Part shown: positions 1 through 20,478 of the stretch, piece by piece
Numbering within the stretch: position 1 is the stretch's first letter
Layout of the letters: each line of letters starts with the position of its first letter
From: an uncultured Gammaproteobacteria bacterium
GTDB taxonomy: Bacteria > Patescibacteriota > Patescibacteriia > Veblenbacterales > UBA10138
DNA: 64,000 nucleotides
NCBI GenBank assembly: GCA_964453605.1
Contig: CAYVOI010000001.1
Coordinates: 241,627-305,626 of the forward strand
Direction: 5' to 3'
Notes under the pieces: model-generated
Told to the model about the DNA's origin: nothing
The model's database searches: none
Seen by the model: the letters and a program-made list of their open reading frames with translations, nothing else
Program-made: the position numbers and the translations under genes

Positions 1-422
1 TACAGTCCGTTGAAACCAGTCTTGTTCAAGAAGATTAGATGAGCCGTTTTGCCGATAGAGCCATCTCTCAACGAGTTGTATTTGCTGCGCATCTCATAGT
101 AAAACTCGCTTTGCTCTTCGTCTGATTTTGCGTGATAAGCGTTTTGTATTTGTCGCAGAAGTTTTACCAATTCGTTTGTTCTATTCTGAACGTGTTTGTA
201 TGCAGCAATAAGCGTAGTGTTGATGTCATTCAAAACCGCTTCTTTTGGCTGTACATCAAAGAACACTGCGCCACCGCCCAGGAAGGGTTCAAAGTAACGA
301 TTGAACTTCAAAGGATAGAAATTACGAAGTTGCGGCAGGAGTTGTGTTTTACCCCCTACCCATTTCACGAATGGTTTTGCCGTCCTCTTCTTCAATTTTG
401 GTTTTGTGATGGTCATTGTCAT
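1..422 (-). CDS. DNA adenine methyltransferase, Dam/D12 family; N-terminal part only, the gene runs off the window start
   Basis: Minus-strand translation from ATG 422..420 gives MTMTITKPKLKKRTAKPFVKWVGGKTQLLPQLRNFYPLKFNRYFEPFLGGGAVFFDVQPKE... The KWVGGK and F-x-GGG motifs are typical of D12-class N6-adenine MTases. It is masked in the ORF track by the antisense ORF 132..608. Confidence 0.7.
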   Translation of the reverse strand, partial: MTMTITKPKLKKRTAKPFVKWVGGKTQLLPQLRNFYPLKFNRYFEPFLGGGAVFFDVQPKEAVLNDINTTLIAAYKHVQNRTNELVKLLRQIQNAYHAKSDEEQSEFYYEMRSKYNSLRDGSIGKTAHLIFLNKTGFNGL

Positions 423-436
423 AGTGTTGAAGCCAG

Positions 437-619
437 CTACTTTTTGGATTTCTCGTCATCTCTTCCTTGTTTGAGAAAATCCTTTATGTCCTGGTCGGTA
501 AAGCGCCATTTACCGAGTTTTGAACCTTTGAGCCAGCCTTTTGCCATATACCTGAATAGCGTTCGCTCTTTGACGCCAAGCACCTTCTCCAACTGTTTCA
601 ATGTGTAGGTTTTTAGCAT
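437..619 (-). CDS. Small HTH DNA-binding protein, excisionase/AlpA-like
   Basis: 60 aa: MLKTYTLKQLEKVLGVKERTLFRYMAKGWLKGSKLGKWRFTDQDIKDF. This is the typical phage excisionase helix-turn-helix pattern. It lies immediately upstream of the Dam gene on the same strand. Confidence 0.55.
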   Translation of the reverse strand: MLKTYTLKQLEKVLGVKERTLFRYMAKGWLKGSKLGKWRFTDQDIKDFLKQGRDDEKSKK

Positions 620-696
620 AAAACTTTTGACTTACTGGTGTCTTTATTCTACACTTGAATCAATGAGAAGGCAACTTTTGACAGGGTGCCTTATAA

Positions 697-1341
697 ATGA
701 AAATGACTATGAAAACCAAGCTGGACAATTTTACTGAACTTATCCGCGAAGGAATGCAGTATGCGGAACCAAACATAGAGGATGGAAGCTACCTAATTAA
801 AATCTATGAGGACACACTCTTTGTGAATGGATTTTCGAAGGAAGATATCGAACGGCTTTTGAATAAACTACGTGTCGATGGTCTCATCGCTTTAGTACAA
901 ATCTTCTACGCGCCAAACACTACACTTTCAAGCTATGATCCGCAGGCAAAAGTGAAAGGCAAGGCTGTTTCTGATGAAGTCTTCAATAAACCCGTATATT
1001 ACCTCCATATCAACAAAGAGAAATTGGAGCCAGTCAACTCTGATGAGCCACTTTCGTTTGACGAAGTAACTGGTGTCATTTACTTTCACGGCAAGAAGTG
1101 TGAACTACCACTAAAACAGGTTGAGTACTACGTTTTCAAAACCTTATATGCTAAACCGATTGGAACACGTGTGCCAGAAGATGACATCGAGGAAGAGATT
1201 GATTTACTAAATAGGGGTGATGAAAGTTCCTCCAGGGTTTACGATGCACGCAGGCGAATCAACAAACGCAGCAAAGAACAACTTGGAATTGAGCAACTTA
1301 TCGGATACCGAAACTCTACGTATTGGATAACCCAGTCATAG
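697..1341 (+). CDS. Hypothetical protein, mobile-element cargo
   Basis: 214-aa ORF in an AT-rich region, transcribed divergently from the HTH gene. Promoter-like TTGACT-N17-TACACT at about 627-655. Confidence 0.4.
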   Translation: MKMTMKTKLDNFTELIREGMQYAEPNIEDGSYLIKIYEDTLFVNGFSKEDIERLLNKLRVDGLIALVQIFYAPNTTLSSYDPQAKVKGKAVSDEVFNKPVYYLHINKEKLEPVNSDEPLSFDEVTGVIYFHGKKCELPLKQVEYYVFKTLYAKPIGTRVPEDDIEEEIDLLNRGDESSSRVYDARRRINKRSKEQLGIEQLIGYRNSTYWITQS

Positions 1342-1430
1342 GCAATTCTGACTCGGATTGAGTCAGTACGCTTCCATAGTCATAGGAATAGGCTTGAGAA
1401 AAGCCTGTTTTATTTTGGCTTTGAAAGTTT

Positions 1431-1682
1431 ATGACAATGACTGGATACAACACAGATGAGTTTCGCACTGCAGACCTTTCGCTGACTGCGGCTCTTTGCG
1501 TTTCTGGCTTTGTCGTTGAAGAGATGGAGAGGGTTAGTCCCAGTAGGTCGGTCTTCATCTTCCAGGACACTACCGAACTTCAAGAAGCTGTGAGCCGCTA
1601 TTGGCGAGCAGATTTGAGAGTTGAGCCTCAAGCGCTATTCAACCAACTCAAAGTCTTAAAAGCGCGAATCTACGAGCGATGA
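1431..1682 (+). CDS. Hypothetical protein
   Basis: 83-aa ORF in a run of co-oriented small genes. Confidence 0.3.
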   Translation: MTMTGYNTDEFRTADLSLTAALCVSGFVVEEMERVSPSRSVFIFQDTTELQEAVSRYWRADLRVEPQALFNQLKVLKARIYER

Positions 1683-1876
1683 TTTCTGACGCTTCACTAC
1701 AAGAGTTTAAGGAGATTTGGAAAGAAGAGATTGGTACTGAAATCTCCGATGAACAAGCAATGGAAGAAGCTACGCAGCTTTTGACGCTCTTTGATGCGAT
1801 TTACCGACCCATCAAGAAGCAATGGCTTAATGACGATGACTATGGAATCCACAAGCGACAATCTCAAGCGGTATAA
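1679..1876 (+). CDS. Hypothetical protein
   Basis: 65-aa acidic ORF; its start overlaps the previous stop (ATGA). Confidence 0.3.
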   Translation: MISDASLQEFKEIWKEEIGTEISDEQAMEEATQLLTLFDAIYRPIKKQWLNDDDYGIHKRQSQAV

Positions 1877-2741
1877 GCCTGAACCGCGAGAAGTCGGTTC
1901 AAAAGACGATTCCACAAAGGAACCGTTTATTCCTTTTGGTCGCTACCTCACAGAACACTACCGCGGTCACAAAATAACATATCGAGAGCTTGAGCTTTAC
2001 CTTTGGATGCGTCTACACGCCAATAAGTTTGGCATCGCTGACATAAGTACGGGCAAAATCCTCGACGACTTACATCATTTCAAAAGTGTTGATTACATCA
2101 CAAAGACTTTGAGGTCGTTGCGAAGGAAGAGGTACATCAGTTATCAGGATCGCAAAGGACACCGACGTTCGTTCGATGTCCGTTTTGATTACTGGCTTGG
2201 AGAAGGCGGCATAGTATGGACTCTTGGCAATGAAGGTAGGTACGAACTCCGAGGTGAAAATCTATCCTCAAACAGTACTGAAATGGATGTTACTCCGAGG
2301 TCAGATACTCAAACTCCGAAGTTGAACGGGCAAGAACAAGCTGAAAACAATGCTTTGCCCGCAGTAGTTGTCCGAGGTGATAAGAACGATAAGGAGATTG
2401 AGAAGGAGAATAGAGATTACTCGTCGTCGACGCCTTTAAGAGAAAAGAAGACTTGGAAAGAGATTCCAACGCTCGGTTTCAAGTGGAAGGACGATAACGA
2501 GAAGCGATGCTATGAAATTGCAATCGAAGTCGACGATGAGTATATGGATTACATCTTGAGTAGGCTTTACCACAAATACGGTGGCATCGAAGTCATAGAG
2601 GAAGGCTACAAGCGCTTCGAAGAAGGAATGCGAGCTGCCGACAATAATCTTGATGACATCGGAATCACCGCCGCCTTCTTCAATCACTTCCTTGAAGGAG
2701 CATTAAGCGATAACAGGCTCAAAATACTTGGGCGGTTTTGA
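1830..2741 (+). CDS. Hypothetical protein, possible winged-helix replication/regulatory protein; start uncertain
   Basis: About 300-aa ORF with several candidate ATG starts at 1794-1842. Basic/acidic mixed composition. Confidence 0.35.
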   Translation: MTMTMESTSDNLKRYKPEPREVGSKDDSTKEPFIPFGRYLTEHYRGHKITYRELELYLWMRLHANKFGIADISTGKILDDLHHFKSVDYITKTLRSLRRKRYISYQDRKGHRRSFDVRFDYWLGEGGIVWTLGNEGRYELRGENLSSNSTEMDVTPRSDTQTPKLNGQEQAENNALPAVVVRGDKNDKEIEKENRDYSSSTPLREKKTWKEIPTLGFKWKDDNEKRCYEIAIEVDDEYMDYILSRLYHKYGGIEVIEEGYKRFEEGMRAADNNLDDIGITAAFFNHFLEGALSDNRLKILGRF

Positions 2742-2787
2742 ATACTATGAAAATCCAATCAAACACAATTATGCACCTATACCCCCT

Positions 2788-2814
2788 TGTCAGGGTTTTA
2801 CAGGGTGCTATAAT
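2788..2814 (+). promoter_or_regulatory. Near-consensus sigma70-like promoter (TTGTCA-N15-TATAAT)
   Basis: TTGTCA at 2788-2793 and TATAAT at 2809-2814. An 8-bp inverted repeat GTCGTCCC..GGGACGAC follows at about 2955-2990. Confidence 0.3.
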
Positions 2815-2990
2815 TAAATTGCGTCCTACAAGTTTGAATATAAGCACAGGGTATTTGCCTTTTTTGGCTCCAGGTGAGCAAAGAGGGGCGACTATCCTCC
2901 GCATCTGGGGTGCCTTGTGCATTTCAGACTTGTGGGACGCAGGCTCTGGTCGTCCCTCTTTGTCGTTAGTGGGACGACGGGCATACATCT

Positions 2991-3449
2991 ATGACCCGCG
3001 ACCCCAACTCAAAAGAAGACACTCAAGTAGTGTTCTTCAAAAACAATCCTATCACTCCAAAGAAGAGCCAGTTCCTCCAAAGGATCGGATGGTTCTGGTA
3101 TTTGATTTCGGTTGTTGTTTTACTTCGACTCCTTCAAGTCACGGAGAACTTTTGGCTCACTCTTGCCGCCAGCATAGCGGTGGTGTTTGCGTTTCGATGG
3201 CGAAAAATCGTAGAGGAGATAGACGAGGACATAAAACGTCACGGAACCAGAAACGCACTGACCACGGTTATCAACATACTTTTCATAAAAATTGTTATTT
3301 ACGCAATCGGTCTCTCCTTCCTTTTCACGCTTGCTATGCCACTTGCCTGCAACATTCAAGACTCAATGGGTATCAAGTTCTTCTCGAATAGATTTTGCGA
3401 GAACAGCTTTACTAACCTTAAATATCAACTTTATGAAAACAGATATTAA
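2991..3449 (+). CDS. Hypothetical membrane protein
   Basis: 152-aa ORF with hydrophobic segments; overlaps the recombinase start by a few codons. Confidence 0.3.
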   Translation: MTRDPNSKEDTQVVFFKNNPITPKKSQFLQRIGWFWYLISVVVLLRLLQVTENFWLTLAASIAVVFAFRWRKIVEEIDEDIKRHGTRNALTTVINILFIKIVIYAIGLSFLFTLAMPLACNIQDSMGIKFFSNRFCENSFTNLKYQLYENRY

Positions 3450-5121
3450 AAACAACAAAATCAATTACATCTCCTACACCCGCAAAAGTACAGAGGGCGA
3501 GGATAGACAAACACTCTCGCTCGAAGACCAGAAGCGAGAGCTTGATGAGCTAATTAGCAAAGAGGGTCTGAAGGTCTCTGAAAGTTTTACTGGGAAAGTG
3601 AAAGGTGAAAGCCAGTCCGCACACAAGAGAGGGCGACCGATTTTCAATCACATAATGCAACAGATTGAGAGAGGAAAAGCGAACGGTCTGATTGTGTACC
3701 ACCCAAACCGTATTGCCCGTAATGCTTTCGATGGCGGTCTTGTCATCACGTTGATGGACGAAGGTAAGTTGCTCGAAATTAAAACTCCCACCAAAACATA
3801 CGTGAACAACCCAGACGACAAGTTTTGGTTACAGTTGGAGTTCGGTATGGCAAAGAAGTCATCTGATGATAACGGTGTCGCAGTGACCAGAGGCATTAAG
3901 ACAAAATTGATGGCTGGATGGTATCCTTCACGCGCTCCACTTGGTTACCTCAACACAAAGAATTACGAAGAGAAGGGTAAGAACTTCATTCTCAAAGATA
4001 CAGAGCGCTACGATTCGGTTCGTCGAATGTGGGACTTGATGCTTACGGGAAACTATACTCCTCCGCAGATTGTTCAAATTGCTAACAACGAGTGGAAGTT
4101 CAAAACACGTCCTACCAAACGTCACCCAGGACTCAAGCCACTTTCGCGCAGCAACATCTACAAAATCTTTACCAATCCGTTCTACTACGGTTACTTTGAA
4201 TACGGCAAGGAAGGTTCAAAGCAGTTATACAAAGGCAGTCACGAGCCTATGATTACAGAAAAGGAGTACGACATCGTACAGAAGTTACTCGGACGACTGG
4301 GCAGACCACGCGCCCAAAAACATCGCTTTGCTTTCACAGGATTGATGAGATGCGGTAACTGCGGCGCAATGATTACCGCCGAGGAAAAGGTAAAACATCA
4401 GAAGAATGGCAACATCCATCACTACGTGTATTATCGCTGCACAAAACAGAAGGATGAAAAATGCCCAGAGAAGGCAATCGAGTTGAAAGAATTGAGTTCG
4501 CAGATTGATGAAGCTATTGGAAAGTTCACTATATCCGAGCGCTTTAAGAATTGGGCAATCAAAGACTTGCACCAGATACGCCAAACTGAAGCCCAAACAC
4601 ACGAAGCTGCTCTCAAGAGCACTGAACGCGACCACTTGCGCATTACGCAGCAGTTACACAATCTTTTGCTCAAGCATTCTTCACCAGAGAATAGCGAAGG
4701 ACAGTTGATGTCGGATGCAGAATATCAGGATGTGCGCACGAGCTTGCTAAAGCAGAAATCTGCGCTTGAGTCACGAATCACTACTCAAAACAAGGAAATT
4801 GACGAGTGGGTTGCATTAAGCGAACGCACCTTCAATTTTGCCCGCTACGCACGAACTTGGTTTGCCCAGGGCGATATGAACACCAAGAGAGCGATATTCG
4901 CCTGCATAGGTTCGCACCTCATAGTCAAAGACCGAAAAATAGCAGTTACCCTTCGTCCAGTGTTCCAAACAATCTTTGAAGCATTGCCAAAAACACAACC
5001 TGCAATTTCCGAGATTAGAACCTCTCTTGAACTTGCACTTTCAGCTTCAAATAACGAAAAAGACGCCCTTTCGGGGCAGTCTATTTCTACTTGGCGGAGA
5101 GGATGGGATTCGAACCCATGA
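3433..5121 (+). CDS. Large serine recombinase (resolvase/integrase family)
   Basis: MKTDIKNNKINYISYTRKSTEGEDRQTLSLEDQKRELDEL... shows an N-terminal serine-recombinase catalytic domain (Y-x-R-x-S-T, IVYHPNRIARN). A recombinase domain follows, then Cys clusters (CGNCGAM...YYRC) and a coiled-coil C-terminus. Its 3' end overlaps the 3' end of tRNA-Ser(GCT). Confidence 0.85.
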   Translation: MKTDIKNNKINYISYTRKSTEGEDRQTLSLEDQKRELDELISKEGLKVSESFTGKVKGESQSAHKRGRPIFNHIMQQIERGKANGLIVYHPNRIARNAFDGGLVITLMDEGKLLEIKTPTKTYVNNPDDKFWLQLEFGMAKKSSDDNGVAVTRGIKTKLMAGWYPSRAPLGYLNTKNYEEKGKNFILKDTERYDSVRRMWDLMLTGNYTPPQIVQIANNEWKFKTRPTKRHPGLKPLSRSNIYKIFTNPFYYGYFEYGKEGSKQLYKGSHEPMITEKEYDIVQKLLGRLGRPRAQKHRFAFTGLMRCGNCGAMITAEEKVKHQKNGNIHHYVYYRCTKQKDEKCPEKAIELKELSSQIDEAIGKFTISERFKNWAIKDLHQIRQTEAQTHEAALKSTERDHLRITQQLHNLLLKHSSPENSEGQLMSDAEYQDVRTSLLKQKSALESRITTQNKEIDEWVALSERTFNFARYARTWFAQGDMNTKRAIFACIGSHLIVKDRKIAVTLRPVFQTIFEALPKTQPAISEIRTSLELALSASNNEKDALSGQSISTWRRGWDSNP

Positions 5122-5183
5122 GGCGCTGTTTAGGCGCCACGGTTTAGCAAACCGTTGCCTTAAGCCACTCGGCCACCTCTCCC
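5092..5183 (-). tRNA. tRNA-Ser (anticodon GCT)
   Basis: Minus-strand sequence GGAGAGGTGGCCGAGTGGCTTAAGGCAACGGTTTGCTAAACCGTGGCGCCTAAACAGCGCCTCATGGGTTCGAATCCCATCCTCTCCGCCA. Perfect 7-bp acceptor stem, long variable arm, GTTCGAATC T-loop, encoded CCA. Confidence 0.85.
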
Positions 5184-5189
5184 TATGCT

Positions 5190-5582
5190 TTAAAGATTTT
5201 CTGACAGAAATTTTTTCAGAGCTCCCAGATCTTTTTTCTCTGGGTCGTAATAGTACGATGTGATACCAAGTAATTGAGCACTTTTTACCGCATTTGGGTT
5301 ATGTTCAAAGTAGATGACTTCGTCTTTGTTTAAATCATACCGCTGTAACAATATTTCAAAGTATTTAGGGTCAGTTTTTTCCGGGTCGTGTTTTAAGGTG
5401 AACACCTCGTAGGGCATTTTATCCAGGCCGAATTTCTTGAATTCTTCATCATTTGCACCTGTCAAAATTATTTTTTTGTTCGGAAGAGTTTCGAGTAAAC
5501 TATGCATTGCTTCAAATATTTCAAAACCTTCATTTACCCTAACTACGAATCCGTCAATGGCATCAACTAAAATAGTTTTCAT
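5190..5582 (-). CDS. Short HAD-like hydrolase-domain protein
   Basis: 130 aa; MKTILVDAIDGFVV resembles HAD motif I. AT-rich, wedged between two tRNA-Ser genes. Confidence 0.4.
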   Translation of the reverse strand: MKTILVDAIDGFVVRVNEGFEIFEAMHSLLETLPNKKIILTGANDEEFKKFGLDKMPYEVFTLKHDPEKTDPKYFEILLQRYDLNKDEVIYFEHNPNAVKSAQLLGITSYYYDPEKKDLGALKKFLSENL

Positions 5583-5608
5583 ATAGTTACCTTATAGGCG
5601 GGGGCTAG

Positions 5609-5700
5609 TGGCGGAGGGCACAGGATTCGAACCTGTGTGAGGCTCTCGCCCCAACTGGTTTTCAAGACCAGCGCCTTAAGCCACTCAGCGACCTCTCCAC
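5609..5700 (-). tRNA. tRNA-Ser-like (anticodon TGA) with a mismatched acceptor stem; possible pseudo-tRNA
   Basis: Minus strand GGAGAGGTCGCTGAGTGGCTTAAGGCGCTGGTCTTGAAAACCAGTTGGGGCGAGAGCCTCACACAGGTTCGAATCCTGTGCCCTCCGCCA. The D-arm is nearly identical to tRNA-Ser(GCT), but the acceptor 5' GGAGAGG versus 3' GCCCTCC gives two mismatches. Confidence 0.55.
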
Positions 5701-5701
5701 G

Positions 5702-6016
5702 TTAATTCAATTTACTGTACAGCTTTTTAAATTTGTCTTTTTTATAGCATACCAGGAACCTGTCTTTGTACCTGAGCCCCTGCGCCGTAGCGCCGAGGCA
5801 GAACCCTAGCACTATGGGGTTGTAGATATGACTCAGTACAAGTGTAACACCGAGTGCTAGTGCCCATATCCAGTGGTGCAGGTGAATGTAGTATGCGCCG
5901 AAGCTTAGGCGTAGCGATTGGTGTATGTTGTCTCCCGCGACTTTGCCAGCCGTGAGGCTGAACAACAGGTAGGTAGCAAGCGCGGCGAGCGCAATAGGTA
6001 GGGCAGAGTGCAGCAT
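5702..6016 (-). CDS. Small hydrophobic membrane protein
   Basis: 104 aa with 3 predicted TM-like hydrophobic stretches. Alternative ORF 5742..6059 is arginine-rich and less plausible. Confidence 0.4.
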   Translation of the reverse strand: MLHSALPIALAALATYLLFSLTAGKVAGDNIHQSLRLSFGAYYIHLHHWIWALALGVTLVLSHIYNPIVLGFCLGATAQGLRYKDRFLVCYKKDKFKKLYSKLN

Positions 6017-6043
6017 GGGGTTTATGGTGGCGGAGGGGGGTGG

Positions 6044-6073
6044 CCCTGAAGTAGAGCATAGCTCACTTCAGGG
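6044..6073 (+). repeat. Conserved hairpin repeat CCCTGAAGT-N12-ACTTCAGGG, copy 1
   Basis: Perfect 9-bp inverted repeat. The same stem recurs at 12085..12114 and, with one mismatch, at 43816..43847. Confidence 0.5.
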
Positions 6074-6126
6074 TAAAATTCGAACCTTACTGCGGTGTAA
6101 TAGTTTTTCGCGACCCCGTACGAGAG

Positions 6127-6213
6127 CGGTGGGGGCGAGATTCGAACTCGCGGTCCGTTTGAGCGGACTCCGGTTTTCAAGACCGGTGCACTAAACCACT
6201 ATGCGACCCCACC
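6127..6213 (-). tRNA. tRNA-Ser (anticodon TGA), class II
   Basis: Minus strand GGTGGGGTCGCATAGTGGTTTAGTGCACCGGTCTTGAAAACCGGAGTCCGCTCAAACGGACCGCGAGTTCGAATCTCGCCCCCACCG. Perfect acceptor stem, 3-bp D-stem, long variable arm, G73 discriminator. Confidence 0.7.
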
Positions 6214-6396
6214 GCTCTTCTACGGGGCAAGCTGTCCGATTAAACCACTCTCGCACCCCTCCCTAGCCAAAAAATTGCTACCCCAGTATAGCCACCAAGG
6301 TCAGGAGTGTCAACGTTACCACTTAGGCATTTATTGACGGTAAACAGAAGATGCTTTACCCTTCATACTACAAAGCCAATACAAAAGGAGTCCGCC

Positions 6397-17228: not shown

Positions 17229-17605
17229 ACCGTTTGACAGCCCGAGTAGTTGTGCTACTATACCCCAATACCTTATAGGTTTATGGCTAACTTCAGCCAC
17301 AAGTCGGTCCGCACTACCCAGGTTGTTTGCTTTAGCCTGGTGCTTTGCCTGTGCCTGGAGCGGCTTGGAACTATGAGGTAGATTTCGAAAGCAAAACCCT
17401 CACGCAAATTCCTGAGCCGCCCCTTACCGGAGCGGCTCACGTGTTGTAACAGCGCTTTTTAACAACTAAATCATCAACTCAATCAGGCTACTGTTAGAGA
17501 AAGGAGGAGCACGAAGGGCACTACATGCCCAAACGAGCCAACCCAGCTATTCACTACATCACCACCAACGCTGAGTGGCAGAGCCACTCAAGAAAGGAGC
17601 AGTAC

Positions 17606-17881
17606 ATGCCACACCCGAACGGAGAGCTTGTGACCCAAGCGATGCCAGAGCGCACGTTAGCAGCTCCGCGCCAGCTATCAGCCCCCGGCTACACCAGTCC
17701 CCATGAAATTGGTCGCCACTGTGTTGTGAATATTGGCGGCACCGACCAAGTAGTGTGCTTCTACATGCACTGTGCTGTAACCGGAACGGTTGATAACCTG
17801 AAAAACTTTCTTTTGCAGCCCTGCCAGCGCCGTCGCGGCGACGAAGAAACGCGTGACAGCTGGGGAAACGTTCGACCTTGA
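17606..17881 (+). CDS. Hypothetical small protein
   Basis: 91 aa; SD AAAGGAG 6 nt upstream of ATG 17606. Confidence 0.4.
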   Translation: MPHPNGELVTQAMPERTLAAPRQLSAPGYTSPHEIGRHCVVNIGGTDQVVCFYMHCAVTGTVDNLKNFLLQPCQRRRGDEETRDSWGNVRP

Positions 17882-17892
17882 AAGGAGCCACC

Positions 17893-18084
17893 ATGAAAGC
17901 GGATAAGCACTGTGCCAGTTGTAACTTTCCTATCGACGACGCGGTTGAAACCTGTGCCTACTGCGGCCACCCGCAAGGCACCCGCCCACTCGACGTGGAG
18001 TGTCCTGACATTCCACACGAACCCAACCCGCCACCGCGGCCGCCCCACGAGAATGAGTTGCCCCGCTACGTTGGCTGCATCTGA
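17893..18084 (+). CDS. Small zinc-ribbon protein
   Basis: 63 aa MKADKHCASCNFPIDDAVETCAYCGHPQGT... (CxxC...CxxC) with a Pro-rich tail. SD AAAGGAG 5 nt upstream. Confidence 0.45.
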   Translation: MKADKHCASCNFPIDDAVETCAYCGHPQGTRPLDVECPDIPHEPNPPPRPPHENELPRYVGCI

Positions 18085-18132
18085 CCCGCTTCACCCCCCT
18101 ACTGTTCAACCCGAACCTAAAAGGAGTAAACA

Positions 18133-18414
18133 ATGACCACGTGCATAAGAAAGATATGCCGCACCTGCAAGCGTTCACCAACCAATCTTGAGACCAACTA
18201 CTGCCAACACTGCGAGCGGTACACCGGTTTTGTACCCGATAGGCGCGCTGAAGAGCTCTACGAAGTTTGCACCCAGTGCGCCCACCCGCGTTTTTCACGA
18301 GGTAACGGCCAGTGTACAGCAGCCCACCCGCTCGCCACCGAGTTTAGGTGGATGAACGTCTTAGAGCACCGCTCACTCCGCCAGCAGCTCGCTGAACCCG
18401 AAGTCACCGAATAG
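18133..18414 (+). CDS. Small zinc-ribbon protein, two CxxC pairs
   Basis: 93 aa with CRTC...CQHC and CTQC motifs. SD AAAAGGAG upstream. Confidence 0.45.
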   Translation: MTTCIRKICRTCKRSPTNLETNYCQHCERYTGFVPDRRAEELYEVCTQCAHPRFSRGNGQCTAAHPLATEFRWMNVLEHRSLRQQLAEPEVTE

Positions 18415-18469
18415 CCCAATCACCCACCACCAACCCGCGGGGTCTAGCTCCGCAGAAAGGAACTAGTAC

Positions 18470-18919
18470 ATGGAAAGCACCACCGCCCGGACGGCTGAGC
18501 TGTACCAGCTCTGGAAAGCATCATGCAATGCACTTCGGCAGTTGCGGGCCGACAAGCAGGTGCTCGCCAAGAAGCAGTGCGTGCTCAGCCAAGAGCTCAT
18601 TGCCCTTCGCTCGCGTAGCAAAGCAGAGCAGGAACTGCTCAGGGTTCGCACAGCCGAGCTCAGGCAGAGCATCGATAACCATACGGCCAGCTACCAGCAG
18701 CACATTCGTACCCACCGCCGGCTCTGCCGAACCATCGAAGCCACGCTCGGCTCGGGCACCATTGGCACCTGGGTTAGCACCCTACTCGTTCTCACCGCCC
18801 CGCAGCCTGAACCAGAGCCGTCGCCGGCTGAACAGCAAATGAAGCCAATTGTACTTTCGAAAAGTCCGGATTCTAACTACGGCCGCAGCGGCGGACTGTA
18901 CTGGGACGGCTACGCTTAA
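18470..18919 (+). CDS. Hypothetical coiled-coil protein with one hydrophobic segment
   Basis: 149 aa; SD GAAAGGAA upstream. Terminator GGTTTCCAC-AAC-GTGGAAGCC plus T-run at about 18944-18985. Confidence 0.45.
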   Translation: MESTTARTAELYQLWKASCNALRQLRADKQVLAKKQCVLSQELIALRSRSKAEQELLRVRTAELRQSIDNHTASYQQHIRTHRRLCRTIEATLGSGTIGTWVSTLLVLTAPQPEPEPSPAEQQMKPIVLSKSPDSNYGRSGGLYWDGYA

Positions 18920-19203
18920 CACCAACCCATTATCACTCATTTTTTTAAAAAGGTTTCCACAACGTGGAAGCCTTTTATTTTCTTGGTTCTTTTAAACTCC
19001 ACGGTTCATCAAACATTCATGCTTGTACTGAAGTGTTCGTTGGCTCAAGGTGAGGGCAAACAAAAAACGAATCTTTATTCAAAGAAAGGAGGAAAAACCA
19101 GCGAAAAAAGGGACAAAGTTTTGTCCCTTTTTATTTTTTCGCTAAGTTCCAGCTTGTGTATAAAAAAATGGCTAACGTTAGCCACCAGATTCATTTTTCG
19201 CGA

Positions 19204-19475
19204 TTGACAAAACACTTCACTTGCGCTACACTGGTAGTAGCTCTTCCACATGCTTGATACCAATTGAGCTCTATACATATATGCCATGGGGTTCGCATAG
19301 CTAACGCCTCCGGGCGACAGCTGAGAACGCCACGCGGCAGTGTGGTAGGGGAGTAACGGGACGTTTGATGGGAGTGAGGAACACGCTCTCATCCGCACCC
19401 AGCTTCCCTAAGCCCAGCCCAACTGGAGTCTAGGAACTCCAATTCGTATCAAGCCCTGGTAGGGCTTTTAATTTT
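19204..19475 (+). ncRNA. Candidate small ncRNA unit: consensus promoter to intrinsic terminator, no ORF
   Basis: TTGACA 19204-19209, N17, TACACT 19227-19232. Terminator AGCCCT-GGT-AGGGCT plus TTTTAATTTT at 19452-19475. About 235 nt between them with no ORF longer than 10 codons. Confidence 0.3.
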
Positions 19476-19525
19476 GCCCAAATATTGCTACAGTGCCAGA
19501 GCTCAATACCCGTATTGAGCACTCT

Positions 19526-19653
19526 GGTCGGGGTGTGGTGTACCCCGAAGAATCCGCCAGTCGGCGGATTTACGGGGCAGGCATGCACCCGAGGGGGCGA
19601 GAGCGAGCTGGCGTAGCTCTCGCGGGCAGTTACATTGAAAAAGTATCCATGGT
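19526..19653 (+). pseudogene. Degenerate 5' fragment of tRNA-Pro with hairpin insertions
   Basis: Starts with the same 19 nt as the tRNA-Pro 5' end (GGTCGGGGTGTGGTGTACC). Retains ATGCACCC but has a nested hairpin inserted in the D-loop and no T-arm or acceptor 3' half. Confidence 0.4.
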
Positions 19654-19728
19654 CGGGGTGTGGTGTACCGGTAACATGCACCCTTGGGGTGGGTGTGACA
19701 GCGGGTTCGACTCCCGCCACCCCGACCA
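19654..19728 (+). tRNA. tRNA-Pro (anticodon GGG)
   Basis: CGGGGTGTGGTGTACCGGTAACATGCACCCTTGGGGTGGGTGTGACAGCGGGTTCGACTCCCGCCACCCCGACCA. 7-bp acceptor, CACCC/GGGTG anticodon stem with loop TTGGGGT, TTCGACT T-loop, encoded CCA. Confidence 0.8.
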
Positions 19729-19762
19729 TGGATATTTGGAAGACAGCGGGCATTGCCCAGGA

Positions 19763-19800
19763 GGGTGTGACGGTGGGTTCGACTCCCACTACCCCGACTA
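19763..19800 (+). repeat. Partial direct repeat of the tRNA-Pro 3' half (att-like remnant)
   Basis: GGGTGTGACGGTGGGTTCGACTCCCACTACCCCGACTA versus the tRNA GGGTGTGACAGCGGGTTCGACTCCCGCCACCCCGACCA. A third acceptor-end-like copy, CCTCCACCCCGACCA, sits at 19942-19956. Confidence 0.5.
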
Positions 19801-20025
19801 AGCACATTCGTTTAGGAGACAGAGGGGCGTAAAGCCCTCGCGTAAAGCGACGTGGTCGCCACGCGACTTTACGTCGGGGGCCACGCCCTCTAGGAGGTTC
19901 GATTTACCCCGTAGGGATACGAAGTATCTCCTGCGGGGCTCCCTCCACCCCGACCAGAGATCATAGATATGATGAAACCCGACTCGCATCGCAAGCCGGG
20001 TTTCGTTGTTTGAAGTTAGTGCTTT

Positions 20026-20478
20026 TTAGCTCGGTACCAGAGCCAGGCCTTGGGAGTGACAGATGCTGAAGGCGGGGTGTTTCTCGCCAATTTCACGTAA
20101 GACCTCTTCGGTCTGTTTTCGCCAACGCGAGTCGCAGGGTTTAGCGTTGGTAACTTTAAAGCATTCAAGCGCTTCGGTCTTAGTTTTGAAAAGTGCGATG
20201 ATGGCAAATGTACCATCTCCCCAGTAGCGAGTGTTTACCTTTTCAATGTTGCGTTCGATGCCAGCAAGTGGGCTGGTCATCGCGTATTTTTCTGGGAAGA
20301 ATACAATAAGCTGTTTGCAAATCGCTACCATTGTGCCACCCTGCAGCTGGTACCCCACAGGAGGAGAATTGCTGTCTCCGTGAACGGCGATTTTCTTGAC
20401 CGAAGGGTACCCATTCTTGCCCTGAGCTTTGGCATGGTAAACAGAAGTTTTTGTTACCGCAAAGAATTCTTTCAACAT
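20026..20478 (-). CDS. Hypothetical protein
   Basis: 150-aa ORF with reasonable codon usage; no recognisable motif. Confidence 0.4.
   Translation of the reverse strand: MLKEFFAVTKTSVYHAKAQGKNGYPSVKKIAVHGDSNSPPVGYQLQGGTMVAICKQLIVFFPEKYAMTSPLAGIERNIEKVNTRYWGDGTFAIIALFKTKTEALECFKVTNAKPCDSRWRKQTEEVLREIGEKHPAFSICHSQGLALVPS

Follow-up and report, generated by a model that had tools for sequence, protein, structure and literature searches.

Adjoining an AT-rich gap in the 64,000-nt stretch of Patescibacteria DNA analysed here (contig CAYVOI010000001.1, positions 241,627 to 305,626; hereafter the window) lies a short promoter-to-terminator unit that a first-pass annotation had put forward as a candidate small RNA. 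The gap, at 18920-19238, has a GC content of 37.6% against 52.5% for the window, as the annotation had described, and the unit itself has 54.5%. The predicted RNA gene occupies 19239-19469 on the + strand (approximately 231 nt), with A19239 as the predicted +1 and the U run at 19466-19469 as its 3' end; a second U run at 19472-19475 provides an alternative transcript end at 19475, giving 237 nt. A transfer RNA (tRNA) gene, tRNA-Pro(GGG), follows on the same strand and an M50 site-2 protease gene lies 1.5 kb downstream of the RNA. The window also carries a ribosomal-protein operon and genes for EF-G, EF-Tu and ComEC, and the closest public relatives of its M50 protein are 'Patescibacteria group bacterium' metagenome-assembled genomes. 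Comparison across related loci indicates that 19239-19469 is very probably a genuine structured non-coding RNA (ncRNA) gene. This reading, and with it the original call of a small RNA, is backed by a conserved promoter set at constant spacing from a 5' end that is itself conserved, a structure supported by covariation, a U run following that structure and the lack of a shared open reading frame (ORF). The coordinates of the features are collected in Table 1.

Table 1. Features of the RNA gene and its surroundings, in window coordinates
Feature	Positions	Strand	Details
Upstream terminator, distal	18948-18976		Pattern scan
Upstream terminator, proximal	19105-19132	+	Pattern scan
Conserved upstream block	19135-19184	.	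Alignment; regulator-binding sites presumed
-35 hexamer TTGACA	19204-19209	+	Pattern scan; conserved in homologs
-10 hexamer TACACT	19227-19232	+	17-nt spacer, spacer sequence unconserved
P1 5' strand	19239-19260	+	P1a AGCUCU 19239-19244 (pairs with 19461-19466); P1b CCA 19246-19248 (pairs with 19457-19459); P1c GCUUGAUAC 19252-19260 (pairs with 19446-19454)
Near-invariant 5' motif AUUGAGCUCUA	19263-19273	+	Identical in 9/10 copies; L108 has AUUGAACUCUA
P3 arm	19287-19332	+	UGG/CCA, GUUC/GAAC, UAGCU/AGCUG, CGCC/GGCG
P4 arm	19336-19420	+	Long irregular hairpin; base GG-C/G-CC, 19336-19338 with 19417-19420
P5 hairpin UGGAGU-CUAGGA-ACUCCA	19424-19441	+	3' strand plus AAU (AGGAACUCCAAU) near-invariant
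P1 3' strand	19446-19466	+	GUAUCAAGC 19446-19454, UGG 19457-19459, AGGGCU 19461-19466
RNA-end terminator-like hairpin AAGCCCTGGTAGGGCTT	19451-19467	+	Pattern scan; tail TTAATTTT
tRNA-Pro(GGG)	19654-19728	+	Downstream neighbour in 10/10 copies

Homologs were sought by three routes: nhmmer searches of 80 related loci fetched with the M50 gene as anchor, a pattern scan of metagenome contigs with the conserved 5' motif, and a synteny walk from the M50 protease. The nhmmer search detected a copy in L010 (E=1.8e-7) at the same position upstream of tRNA-Pro and M50, at a locus whose M50 protein is only 49% identical. The 5' motif scan recovered L083 and L087, and contigs with M50 proteins of graded identity yielded L091, L093, L094, L095 (partial), L096, L106/L107 and L108. 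Conservation in related genomes, which the first-pass annotation had named as a check, was therewith found: there are 10 distinct full-length copies, the window copy included, all on related Patescibacteria contigs. A covariance model, R1, scored all 10 at 102-240 bits (window copy 239.6 bits, E=4e-60) and returned nothing further from the searched loci except weak reverse-strand echoes and one 18-bit match; a four-sequence nhmmer profile gave no further copy in the loci gathered to that point. The RNA is absent near M50 in L002, L003, L006, L008, L011 and L014, though a plain tRNA-Pro(GGG) is present there, and neither the RNA nor tRNA-Pro(GGG) is found at this locus in L099-L105, L110 and L111. 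Some of the sister lineages that have no RNA carry M50 proteins more similar than that of L010. The predicted RNA family is real, but narrow and patchy within the Patescibacteria, or candidate phyla radiation (CPR).

Taken by themselves, promoter-like and terminator-like motifs occur here at chance level, with 2 promoter-like sites in 3 kb (1.5 expected) and 7 terminator-like sites (3.6 expected); they are convincing because they are conserved across the 10 homologous loci. The near-perfect sigma70 promoter described at first pass, TTGACA-N17-TACACT, was confirmed at 19204-19232 with 10 of 12 consensus matches. Across the copies the -35 element reads TTGAC(A/G/T) in eight and TTGATT in L096 and L108, the -10 element reads TAnnnT, and the spacing is N17-18. 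The sequence between the two hexamers varies freely across the ten loci, and AGCYCU begins the conserved block 6-7 nt past the -10 element in every copy. At the other end GGGCU is followed by 4-6 U in all copies, and a local hairpin of -7 to -10 kcal/mol is present in 9/10. In L093 this local terminator hairpin has been lost, leaving only the end-to-end helix P1a and the U run. For the window, the intrinsic terminator claimed earlier, AGCCCT-GGT-AGGGCT with a U run, was confirmed as a local hairpin, with the amendment that its 3' arm AGGGCU has a second partner in the six nucleotides with which the RNA begins (AGCUCU). The two terminators reported upstream of the unit were likewise located (Table 1). 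The proximal one, consisting of an A run, a GC stem and a T run, has an equivalent approximately 100 nt before the -35 element in 8/8 aligned loci and insulates the RNA promoter. The description of the unit as stand-alone fits its own promoter and U run but leaves out the tRNA-Pro(GGG) gene that always lies just downstream.

The + strand of the unit folds with a minimum free energy of -99.6 kcal/mol (z=-4.9), as against z=-2.0 for the - strand. Folds of single homologs have a common architecture in which a P1 rod is followed by a variable P2 and then by P3, P4 and P5. P1 is a terminal rod of about 20-27 bp; in its helices 1-3, 90-93% of alignment cells are paired and three pairs show compensatory changes, those in P1c being C-G to U-A, U-A to C-G and A-U to G-C, and in L096 matched insertions are found on both P1 strands. 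The 3' strand of P1 overlaps the local terminator hairpin, formed by AGCCCU (19452-19457) and AGGGCU (19461-19466). The near-invariant 5' motif pairs either locally, as P2 (AUUGAG/CUCAAU; seen in 6-7 homologs and not in the window), or with 19437-19444, extending P1. The P3 arm is capped by a stable tetraloop, UCCG in the window and UGCG, CUUG and others in relatives, such that UNCG and CUUG loops interchange, and in its helices 5-7 eight pairs have changed on both sides. Beyond its base the P4 arm is made up of UAGGGGAGU/GCUUCCCUA, GGG/CCC and GAUGGGAGUG/CGCUCUCAUC with the loop AGGAACA, and 14 pairs in helices 8-11 have changed on both sides. The P5 5' strand is degenerate in L093 and L106.

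The alignment of all 10 sequences (A9) gave standard pairs in 82.4% of pair cells, the cells counting sequences and not evolutionary events, compared with 32-49% in slid controls in which the 3' partners had been moved by 1-3 columns. In A9, 26 of 67 pairs have changed on both sides, compared with 9-17 in the slid controls, and the covariation score of 0.285 compares with 0.13 or less; for all five measures, 0 of 500 shuffles reached the observed value. The structure was also examined with an 8-sequence alignment and with an unfitted RNAalifold run. Overall there are approximately 65 conserved base pairs, with compensatory changes spanning helices up to 220 nt apart. Invariance clusters at the junction, comprising AUUGAGCUCUA (19263-19273), GAGAAC..CCA.GCGG, GCCC and AGGAACUCCAAU, and the distal helices covary. 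An invariant junction with freely covarying arms of this predicted kind is the signature of function through a tertiary fold, be it protein binding, ligand binding or catalysis.

The claim that the longest ORF in the unit is under 10 codons holds for ATG starts on the + strand only; once GTG and TTG starts are admitted, a 30-aa ORF (TTG; 19264-19356, +) and a 107-aa ORF (GTG; 19075-19398, -) overlap it. No reading frame is shared, the longest ORFs differing in strand, position and length between the copies. This bears on the proposal that the unit is not an RNA gene at all, its conservation reflecting instead either a gene for a small protein or an element acting at the DNA level, for instance a regulatory region or the attachment site of an element targeting tRNA-Pro. 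The fragments of tRNA-Pro nearby, which show that the locus has been rearranged, and the conservation of DNA motifs upstream would fit such an element. Against it stand the compensatory changes between distant helices, the stronger folding of one strand than of the other, and the exact coincidence of promoter and U run with the two limits of the conserved block. There is moreover no integrase and no match in mobile-element collections: blastn detected no DNA similarity to the unit in phage and plasmid collections, and viral contigs scanned with two conserved RNA motifs gave no match. We consider this proposal extremely unlikely.

How the RNA might act was weighed with these features in hand. 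Our preference, held tentatively and at somewhat short of even confidence, is for a stable RNA whose folded junction would bind protein or serve as a scaffold, making it a ribonucleoprotein (RNP) component or a sequestering RNA, and not for an antisense RNA. A protein-binding or scaffold role is favoured because P1 is too long for a switching helix, several of the tRNA genes have promoters of their own, and conserved antisense targets were not found. In the proposed scheme the local 3' hairpin and U run would terminate most transcripts, and the released RNA would then close P1, burying its 5' triphosphate end and its 3' end in a single rod in which both would be protected. Where the tRNA has no recognisable promoter, some read-through would give an RNA-tRNA precursor to be separated by RNase P. 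By the same criteria that identified a separate tRNA promoter in L083, L091 and L094 (TTGATT-N17-TATAGT) and another in L010, none was found between RNA and tRNA in the window, L093, L096 or L087; partial co-transcription by read-through is therefore plausible at such loci.

Several points weigh against the protein-binding or scaffold role and, in part, against the RNA gene itself. The transcript, its ends and its stability are predictions from sequence, and the comparison covers ten sequences only, from two or three sub-clades. A9 was fitted to the model, and many of the cells counted in it are inherited and not independent events. A core housekeeping RNP would not be expected to show so narrow and patchy a distribution. 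No conserved partner protein was found: in BLAST and phmmer all-against-all comparisons the upstream ORFs form patchy, weak families of small Cys-rich proteins, and scans of the neighbouring small ORFs against Pfam, PHROG and PADLOC gave no match, nor does the conservation of these ORFs extend to every locus. A cis-acting role would likewise agree with the strict tie to tRNA-Pro, with the terminator that overlaps P1 and with the alternative pairings. Taking gene and mechanism together, we hold the full statement, that of an ncRNA gene whose product binds or scaffolds protein, to be slightly better than evenly balanced.

The cis-acting role is the main rival. It casts the RNA as a leader or riboswitch-like attenuator that would sense a metabolite, a protein or tRNA-Pro and set the read-through into tRNA-Pro(GGG). 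The tRNA gene lies 45-330 nt downstream of the RNA on the same strand in all 10 copies, and the loci in which no tRNA promoter-like site was detected, including the window, would suit an attenuator, as would L093, where the local terminator hairpin is missing and the gap is only 52 nt. Two strands of the RNA each have two possible partners. The 3' arm AGGGCU can pair with AGCCCU in the local hairpin or with the 5' end of the RNA in P1a, and the near-invariant strand ACUCCAAU can pair with UGGAGU in P5 or with AUUGAG of the 5' motif, the latter extending P1 by 6-7 bp. The P1 extension is intact in 10/10 copies and P5 in 6/10. In L108 a C-to-U change in ACUCCAAU is matched by a G-to-A change in both of its partners, and constrained folding places the two states within approximately 5 kcal/mol in 8/10 copies. 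These observations hint at a conformational switch, a putative behaviour that rests on one evolutionary event, the triple compensation in L108.

Other observations count against an attenuator. Four loci have a good separate tRNA promoter, and the distance to the intact tRNA ranges from 52 to 330 nt and can include inserted tRNA fragments. No known riboswitch or T-box model matches the RNA, yet the T-box present in L010 was detected by the same scan. Riboswitch P1 helices are, as general background, far shorter and less stable than the P1 of this RNA. We regard an attenuator as unlikely, although it is the strongest of the competing explanations. A more specific version, in which a bistable sensor toggles ACUCCAAU between P5 and the rod extension and AGGGCU between the terminator and the 5' end, so setting tRNA-Pro(GGG) read-through, is improbable. 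If correct, it would place a tRNA gene under riboswitch-like control for the first time, and the sensor, for a ligand or a tRNA, might be a new one with no relation to T-boxes. A T-box-like reading of the element itself, built on UGGN near the terminator and an invariant CCC, was rejected, UGGU being UGGA in the L010 clade and CCC being held in helix P4a with a compensatory change.

A trans-acting antisense RNA would instead present AUUGAGCUCUA and AGGAACUCCAAU, the latter containing an anti-Shine-Dalgarno-like CUCC, as exposed motifs for pairing with messenger RNAs. Near-invariant segments of 11-12 nt that are not required by any single helix would suit such a role, and the window contains two wobble-compatible 11-nt complements in upstream genes (15967 and 17065), with a further complement, of 10 nt, at 19497 in the leader of the tRNA. 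These three nearby sites are absent from all nine other loci, however, and complements of the invariant motifs occur at chance level, with 10 against 13.8 expected for one comparison and 5 against 1.9 expected, matched by 4 of 100 shuffles, for another; an excess of complements in a further comparison may reflect a codon effect (GAG-CTC-AAx). The approximately 65 conserved pairs also represent far more structure than a seed-type small RNA needs. An antisense function is accordingly rated improbable. Pairing of the RNA with tRNA-Pro was considered and rejected, full-length duplex energies being only about 1-1.7 standard deviations better than those of shuffled sequences, with no consistent site.

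The DNA preceding the promoter is itself conserved. The block that follows the proximal upstream terminator contains TTTTTCGCTAAG (TTTTTGGCTAA in relatives) and, at 19155-19163, CAGCTTGTGTATAAAA; the form TGTGNATAA, in which N is variable among relatives, corresponds to the DnaA-box consensus on the other strand, and the four closest relatives carry CAGCTTGTGNATAAAA, which fits that consensus, also on the other strand. A palindrome, TGGCTAACGTTAGCCA, is located at 19169-19184 in the window, the form TGGCTAACnTTAGCCA being the conserved palindrome of the aligned loci. The upstream motifs are probably regulator-binding sites, and are treated as candidates. A sigma54 promoter or a second sigma70 promoter within the block was rejected, such sites being unconserved across clades. 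Some 1.6-2.0 kb further upstream, the window, L083 and L091 have the palindrome again, beside the promoter of a run of small orphan ORFs, and this sharing suggests that the predicted RNA may be co-regulated with those ORFs as a small regulon. At the window site (17234-17299) the second promoter, TTGACA-N16-TACTAT, is followed about 20 nt on by the second palindrome copy, TGGCTAACTTCAGCCA (17284-17299). This promoter at 17234 heads a long 5' untranslated region and four small orphan ORFs (17525-18919), and the same layout is found in L083 and L091.

The surroundings of the tRNA-Pro gene are unusual in their own right. Nested, fragmented copies of tRNA-Pro occupy 19527-19960 of the window around the intact gene. 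A 5' half at 19527-19600 carries an insertion in its D loop, a hairpin of approximately 33 nt. A 10-bp leader/trailer helix brackets the intact tRNA; beyond it lie a 3' half at 19765-19800 and a T-arm/acceptor piece at 19820-19958, the latter split by two GC-rich hairpin insertions. Similar layouts are found in L083 (approximately 5200-5560, -), L010 (3367-3695) and L108 (approximately 2715-2910), with the D-loop insertion at the same place in both sub-clades, and a plain tRNA is present in four other loci. The fragments may be relics of elements that integrate in the anticodon loop; alternatively, they may make up a split tRNA-like RNA that is functional. A hairpin found in the window and not in its relatives (CCAGAGCUCAAU-ACCCGU-AUUGAGCACUCUGG, 19495-19526) directly precedes the tRNA-Pro 5' fragment; one of its arms is exactly complementary to the RNA invariant motif AUUGAGCUCU, which the other arm nearly reproduces.

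Further observations concern the neighbourhood more widely. In L105, the closest relative of L010 (M50 87% identical), a restriction-modification cluster at 1-3520 with two N6_N4 methyltransferases and an RE_BsaWI-like nuclease replaces both the RNA and tRNA-Pro, which shows that genes turn over at this locus. In L093 (2011-2358) and L096 (1959-2252) a gene shortly before the RNA encodes a small Cys-rich protein, and both proteins have (W/F)SGCGAMC at their C-terminus. Elsewhere in the window, at 5092-6262 (-), three tRNA-Ser genes (GCT, TGA, TGA) occur at a regular spacing of 515-517 nt; their spacers of approximately 430 nt have no common sequence, and a fourth, partial tRNA-Ser-like 22-mer is present at 6241-6262. 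A canonical T-box at 910-1207 of L010 is followed only by a 60-aa zinc-ribbon ORF (1309-1491) with a homolog in L108, an unusual gene for T-box control.

The genomes of Patescibacteria are tiny and leave little space for sequence that is not essential, and the regulatory and structural RNAs of these bacteria are almost undescribed. Earlier orphan RNAs with features such as these have been found to function as riboswitches, ribozymes or RNP components. The seed alignment, structure model and covariance model make the family searchable across CPR genomes and testable in vitro. Should the RNA control tRNA-Pro or bind a lineage-specific protein, it would represent a new piece of CPR biology; otherwise it takes its place, with good support, among the orphan structured RNAs already catalogued.

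Comparison with known families was made against Rfam 15, with the whole window scanned at the gathering score, positions 18800-20100 at E<=10 with relaxed filters, and five homolog loci at E<=5. None of the three scans gave a family that overlapped the unit, whereas tRNAs and the L010 T-box (103 bits) were detected in the scan of the homolog loci. The specific check against 6S, SRP, RNase P and Y RNA that had been suggested at first pass was run, and none of these matched any tested copy. Literature on 6S and other structured RNAs of the CPR contained nothing found to concern this RNA. On this evidence the predicted RNA is a family outside Rfam 15, within the broad class of orphan structured bacterial ncRNAs.

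A divergent version of one of the universal RNAs (6S, SRP, RNase P or Y RNA/YrlA), missed by the Rfam models, was weighed in the same light. Its size, strong promoter, terminal rod formed from both ends and small-genome host would be in keeping with this, and no canonical copy of any of these RNAs is found within the 64-kb window. With 6S RNA (ssrS) it has in common a size class of approximately 200 nt, a strong promoter of the sigma70 type and a long stem in which both ends close the molecule. Where 6S RNA is a rod with a central bubble, this RNA is multi-branched: P3 and P4 covary as separate arms, and P2 and P5 are additional hairpins. Its distribution is also narrow. It does not resemble SRP helix 8 either, and the GNRA-capped SRP domain IV hairpin is not visible in the alignment. 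Nor does the alignment contain an GGAAAGUCC-like sequence or the CR-I and CR-V elements of RNase P RNA, and to our knowledge 231 nt is shorter than the smallest bacterial RNase P RNAs. With Y RNA/YrlA it shares a terminal stem made from both ends that carries a conserved sequence, possibly a protein-binding site, together with a branched effector module, but no T-loop-like or D-loop-like tRNA mimicry was recognised. A gene for Ro/Rsr (TROVE) was found neither in the gene tables of the loci nor in a Pfam scan of the window neighbours. The six copies scanned, that of the window and those of the five homolog loci, gave no match even at the relaxed thresholds, and sister lineages, some with M50 proteins closer than that of L010, do not have the RNA at this locus. 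A divergent universal RNA is accordingly very unlikely.

Resemblances are also found among cis-acting and tRNA-associated elements. T-boxes and attenuating leaders share with the RNA a structured domain, a hairpin with a U run, a 3' arm with an alternative partner, a tRNA theme and near iso-energetic states. The RNA differs in preceding a tRNA gene and not an ORF, in having neither a T-box sequence nor Stem I features, in its P1 of about 20-27 bp, and in the separate promoter that several of the tRNAs possess. The group I introns recently described in tRNA genes of Patescibacteria (PMC13011429) share the phylum, a similar size and the tRNA-gene neighbour. A group I intron was rejected here: there is no Intron_gpI match at E<=10, the RNA, preceded by a conserved promoter, is located outside the tRNA, and no exon halves flank it.

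The remaining comparison is with the large orphan RNAs. As proposed for ROOL, GOLLD, OLE and raiA, the RNA could act on its own, by self-assembly or as a ribozyme, with dimerisation through GAGCUC as one route. The invariant junction core, the complex fold, the tRNA neighbour and the 6-nt palindrome GAGCUC within the most conserved motif would be compatible with this, but GAACUC in L108 breaks the palindrome and the RNA is much smaller than ROOL and GOLLD and has no Rfam similarity. We find such action very improbable. In the wider sense the predicted RNA nevertheless resembles this group. Like the raiA motif RNA, ROOL, GOLLD and OLE, it is a stand-alone gene with a multi-helix junction, an invariant core, covarying distal helices and a tRNA neighbour, ROOL and GOLLD often lying near tRNA genes, and its biochemical function is orphan as theirs is. 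It is set apart from ROOL, GOLLD, OLE, raiA and HEARO by the lack of an Rfam 15 match, and from the first four also by its size of approximately 231 nt, its restriction to one narrow Patescibacteria group and its tie to tRNA-Pro(GGG).

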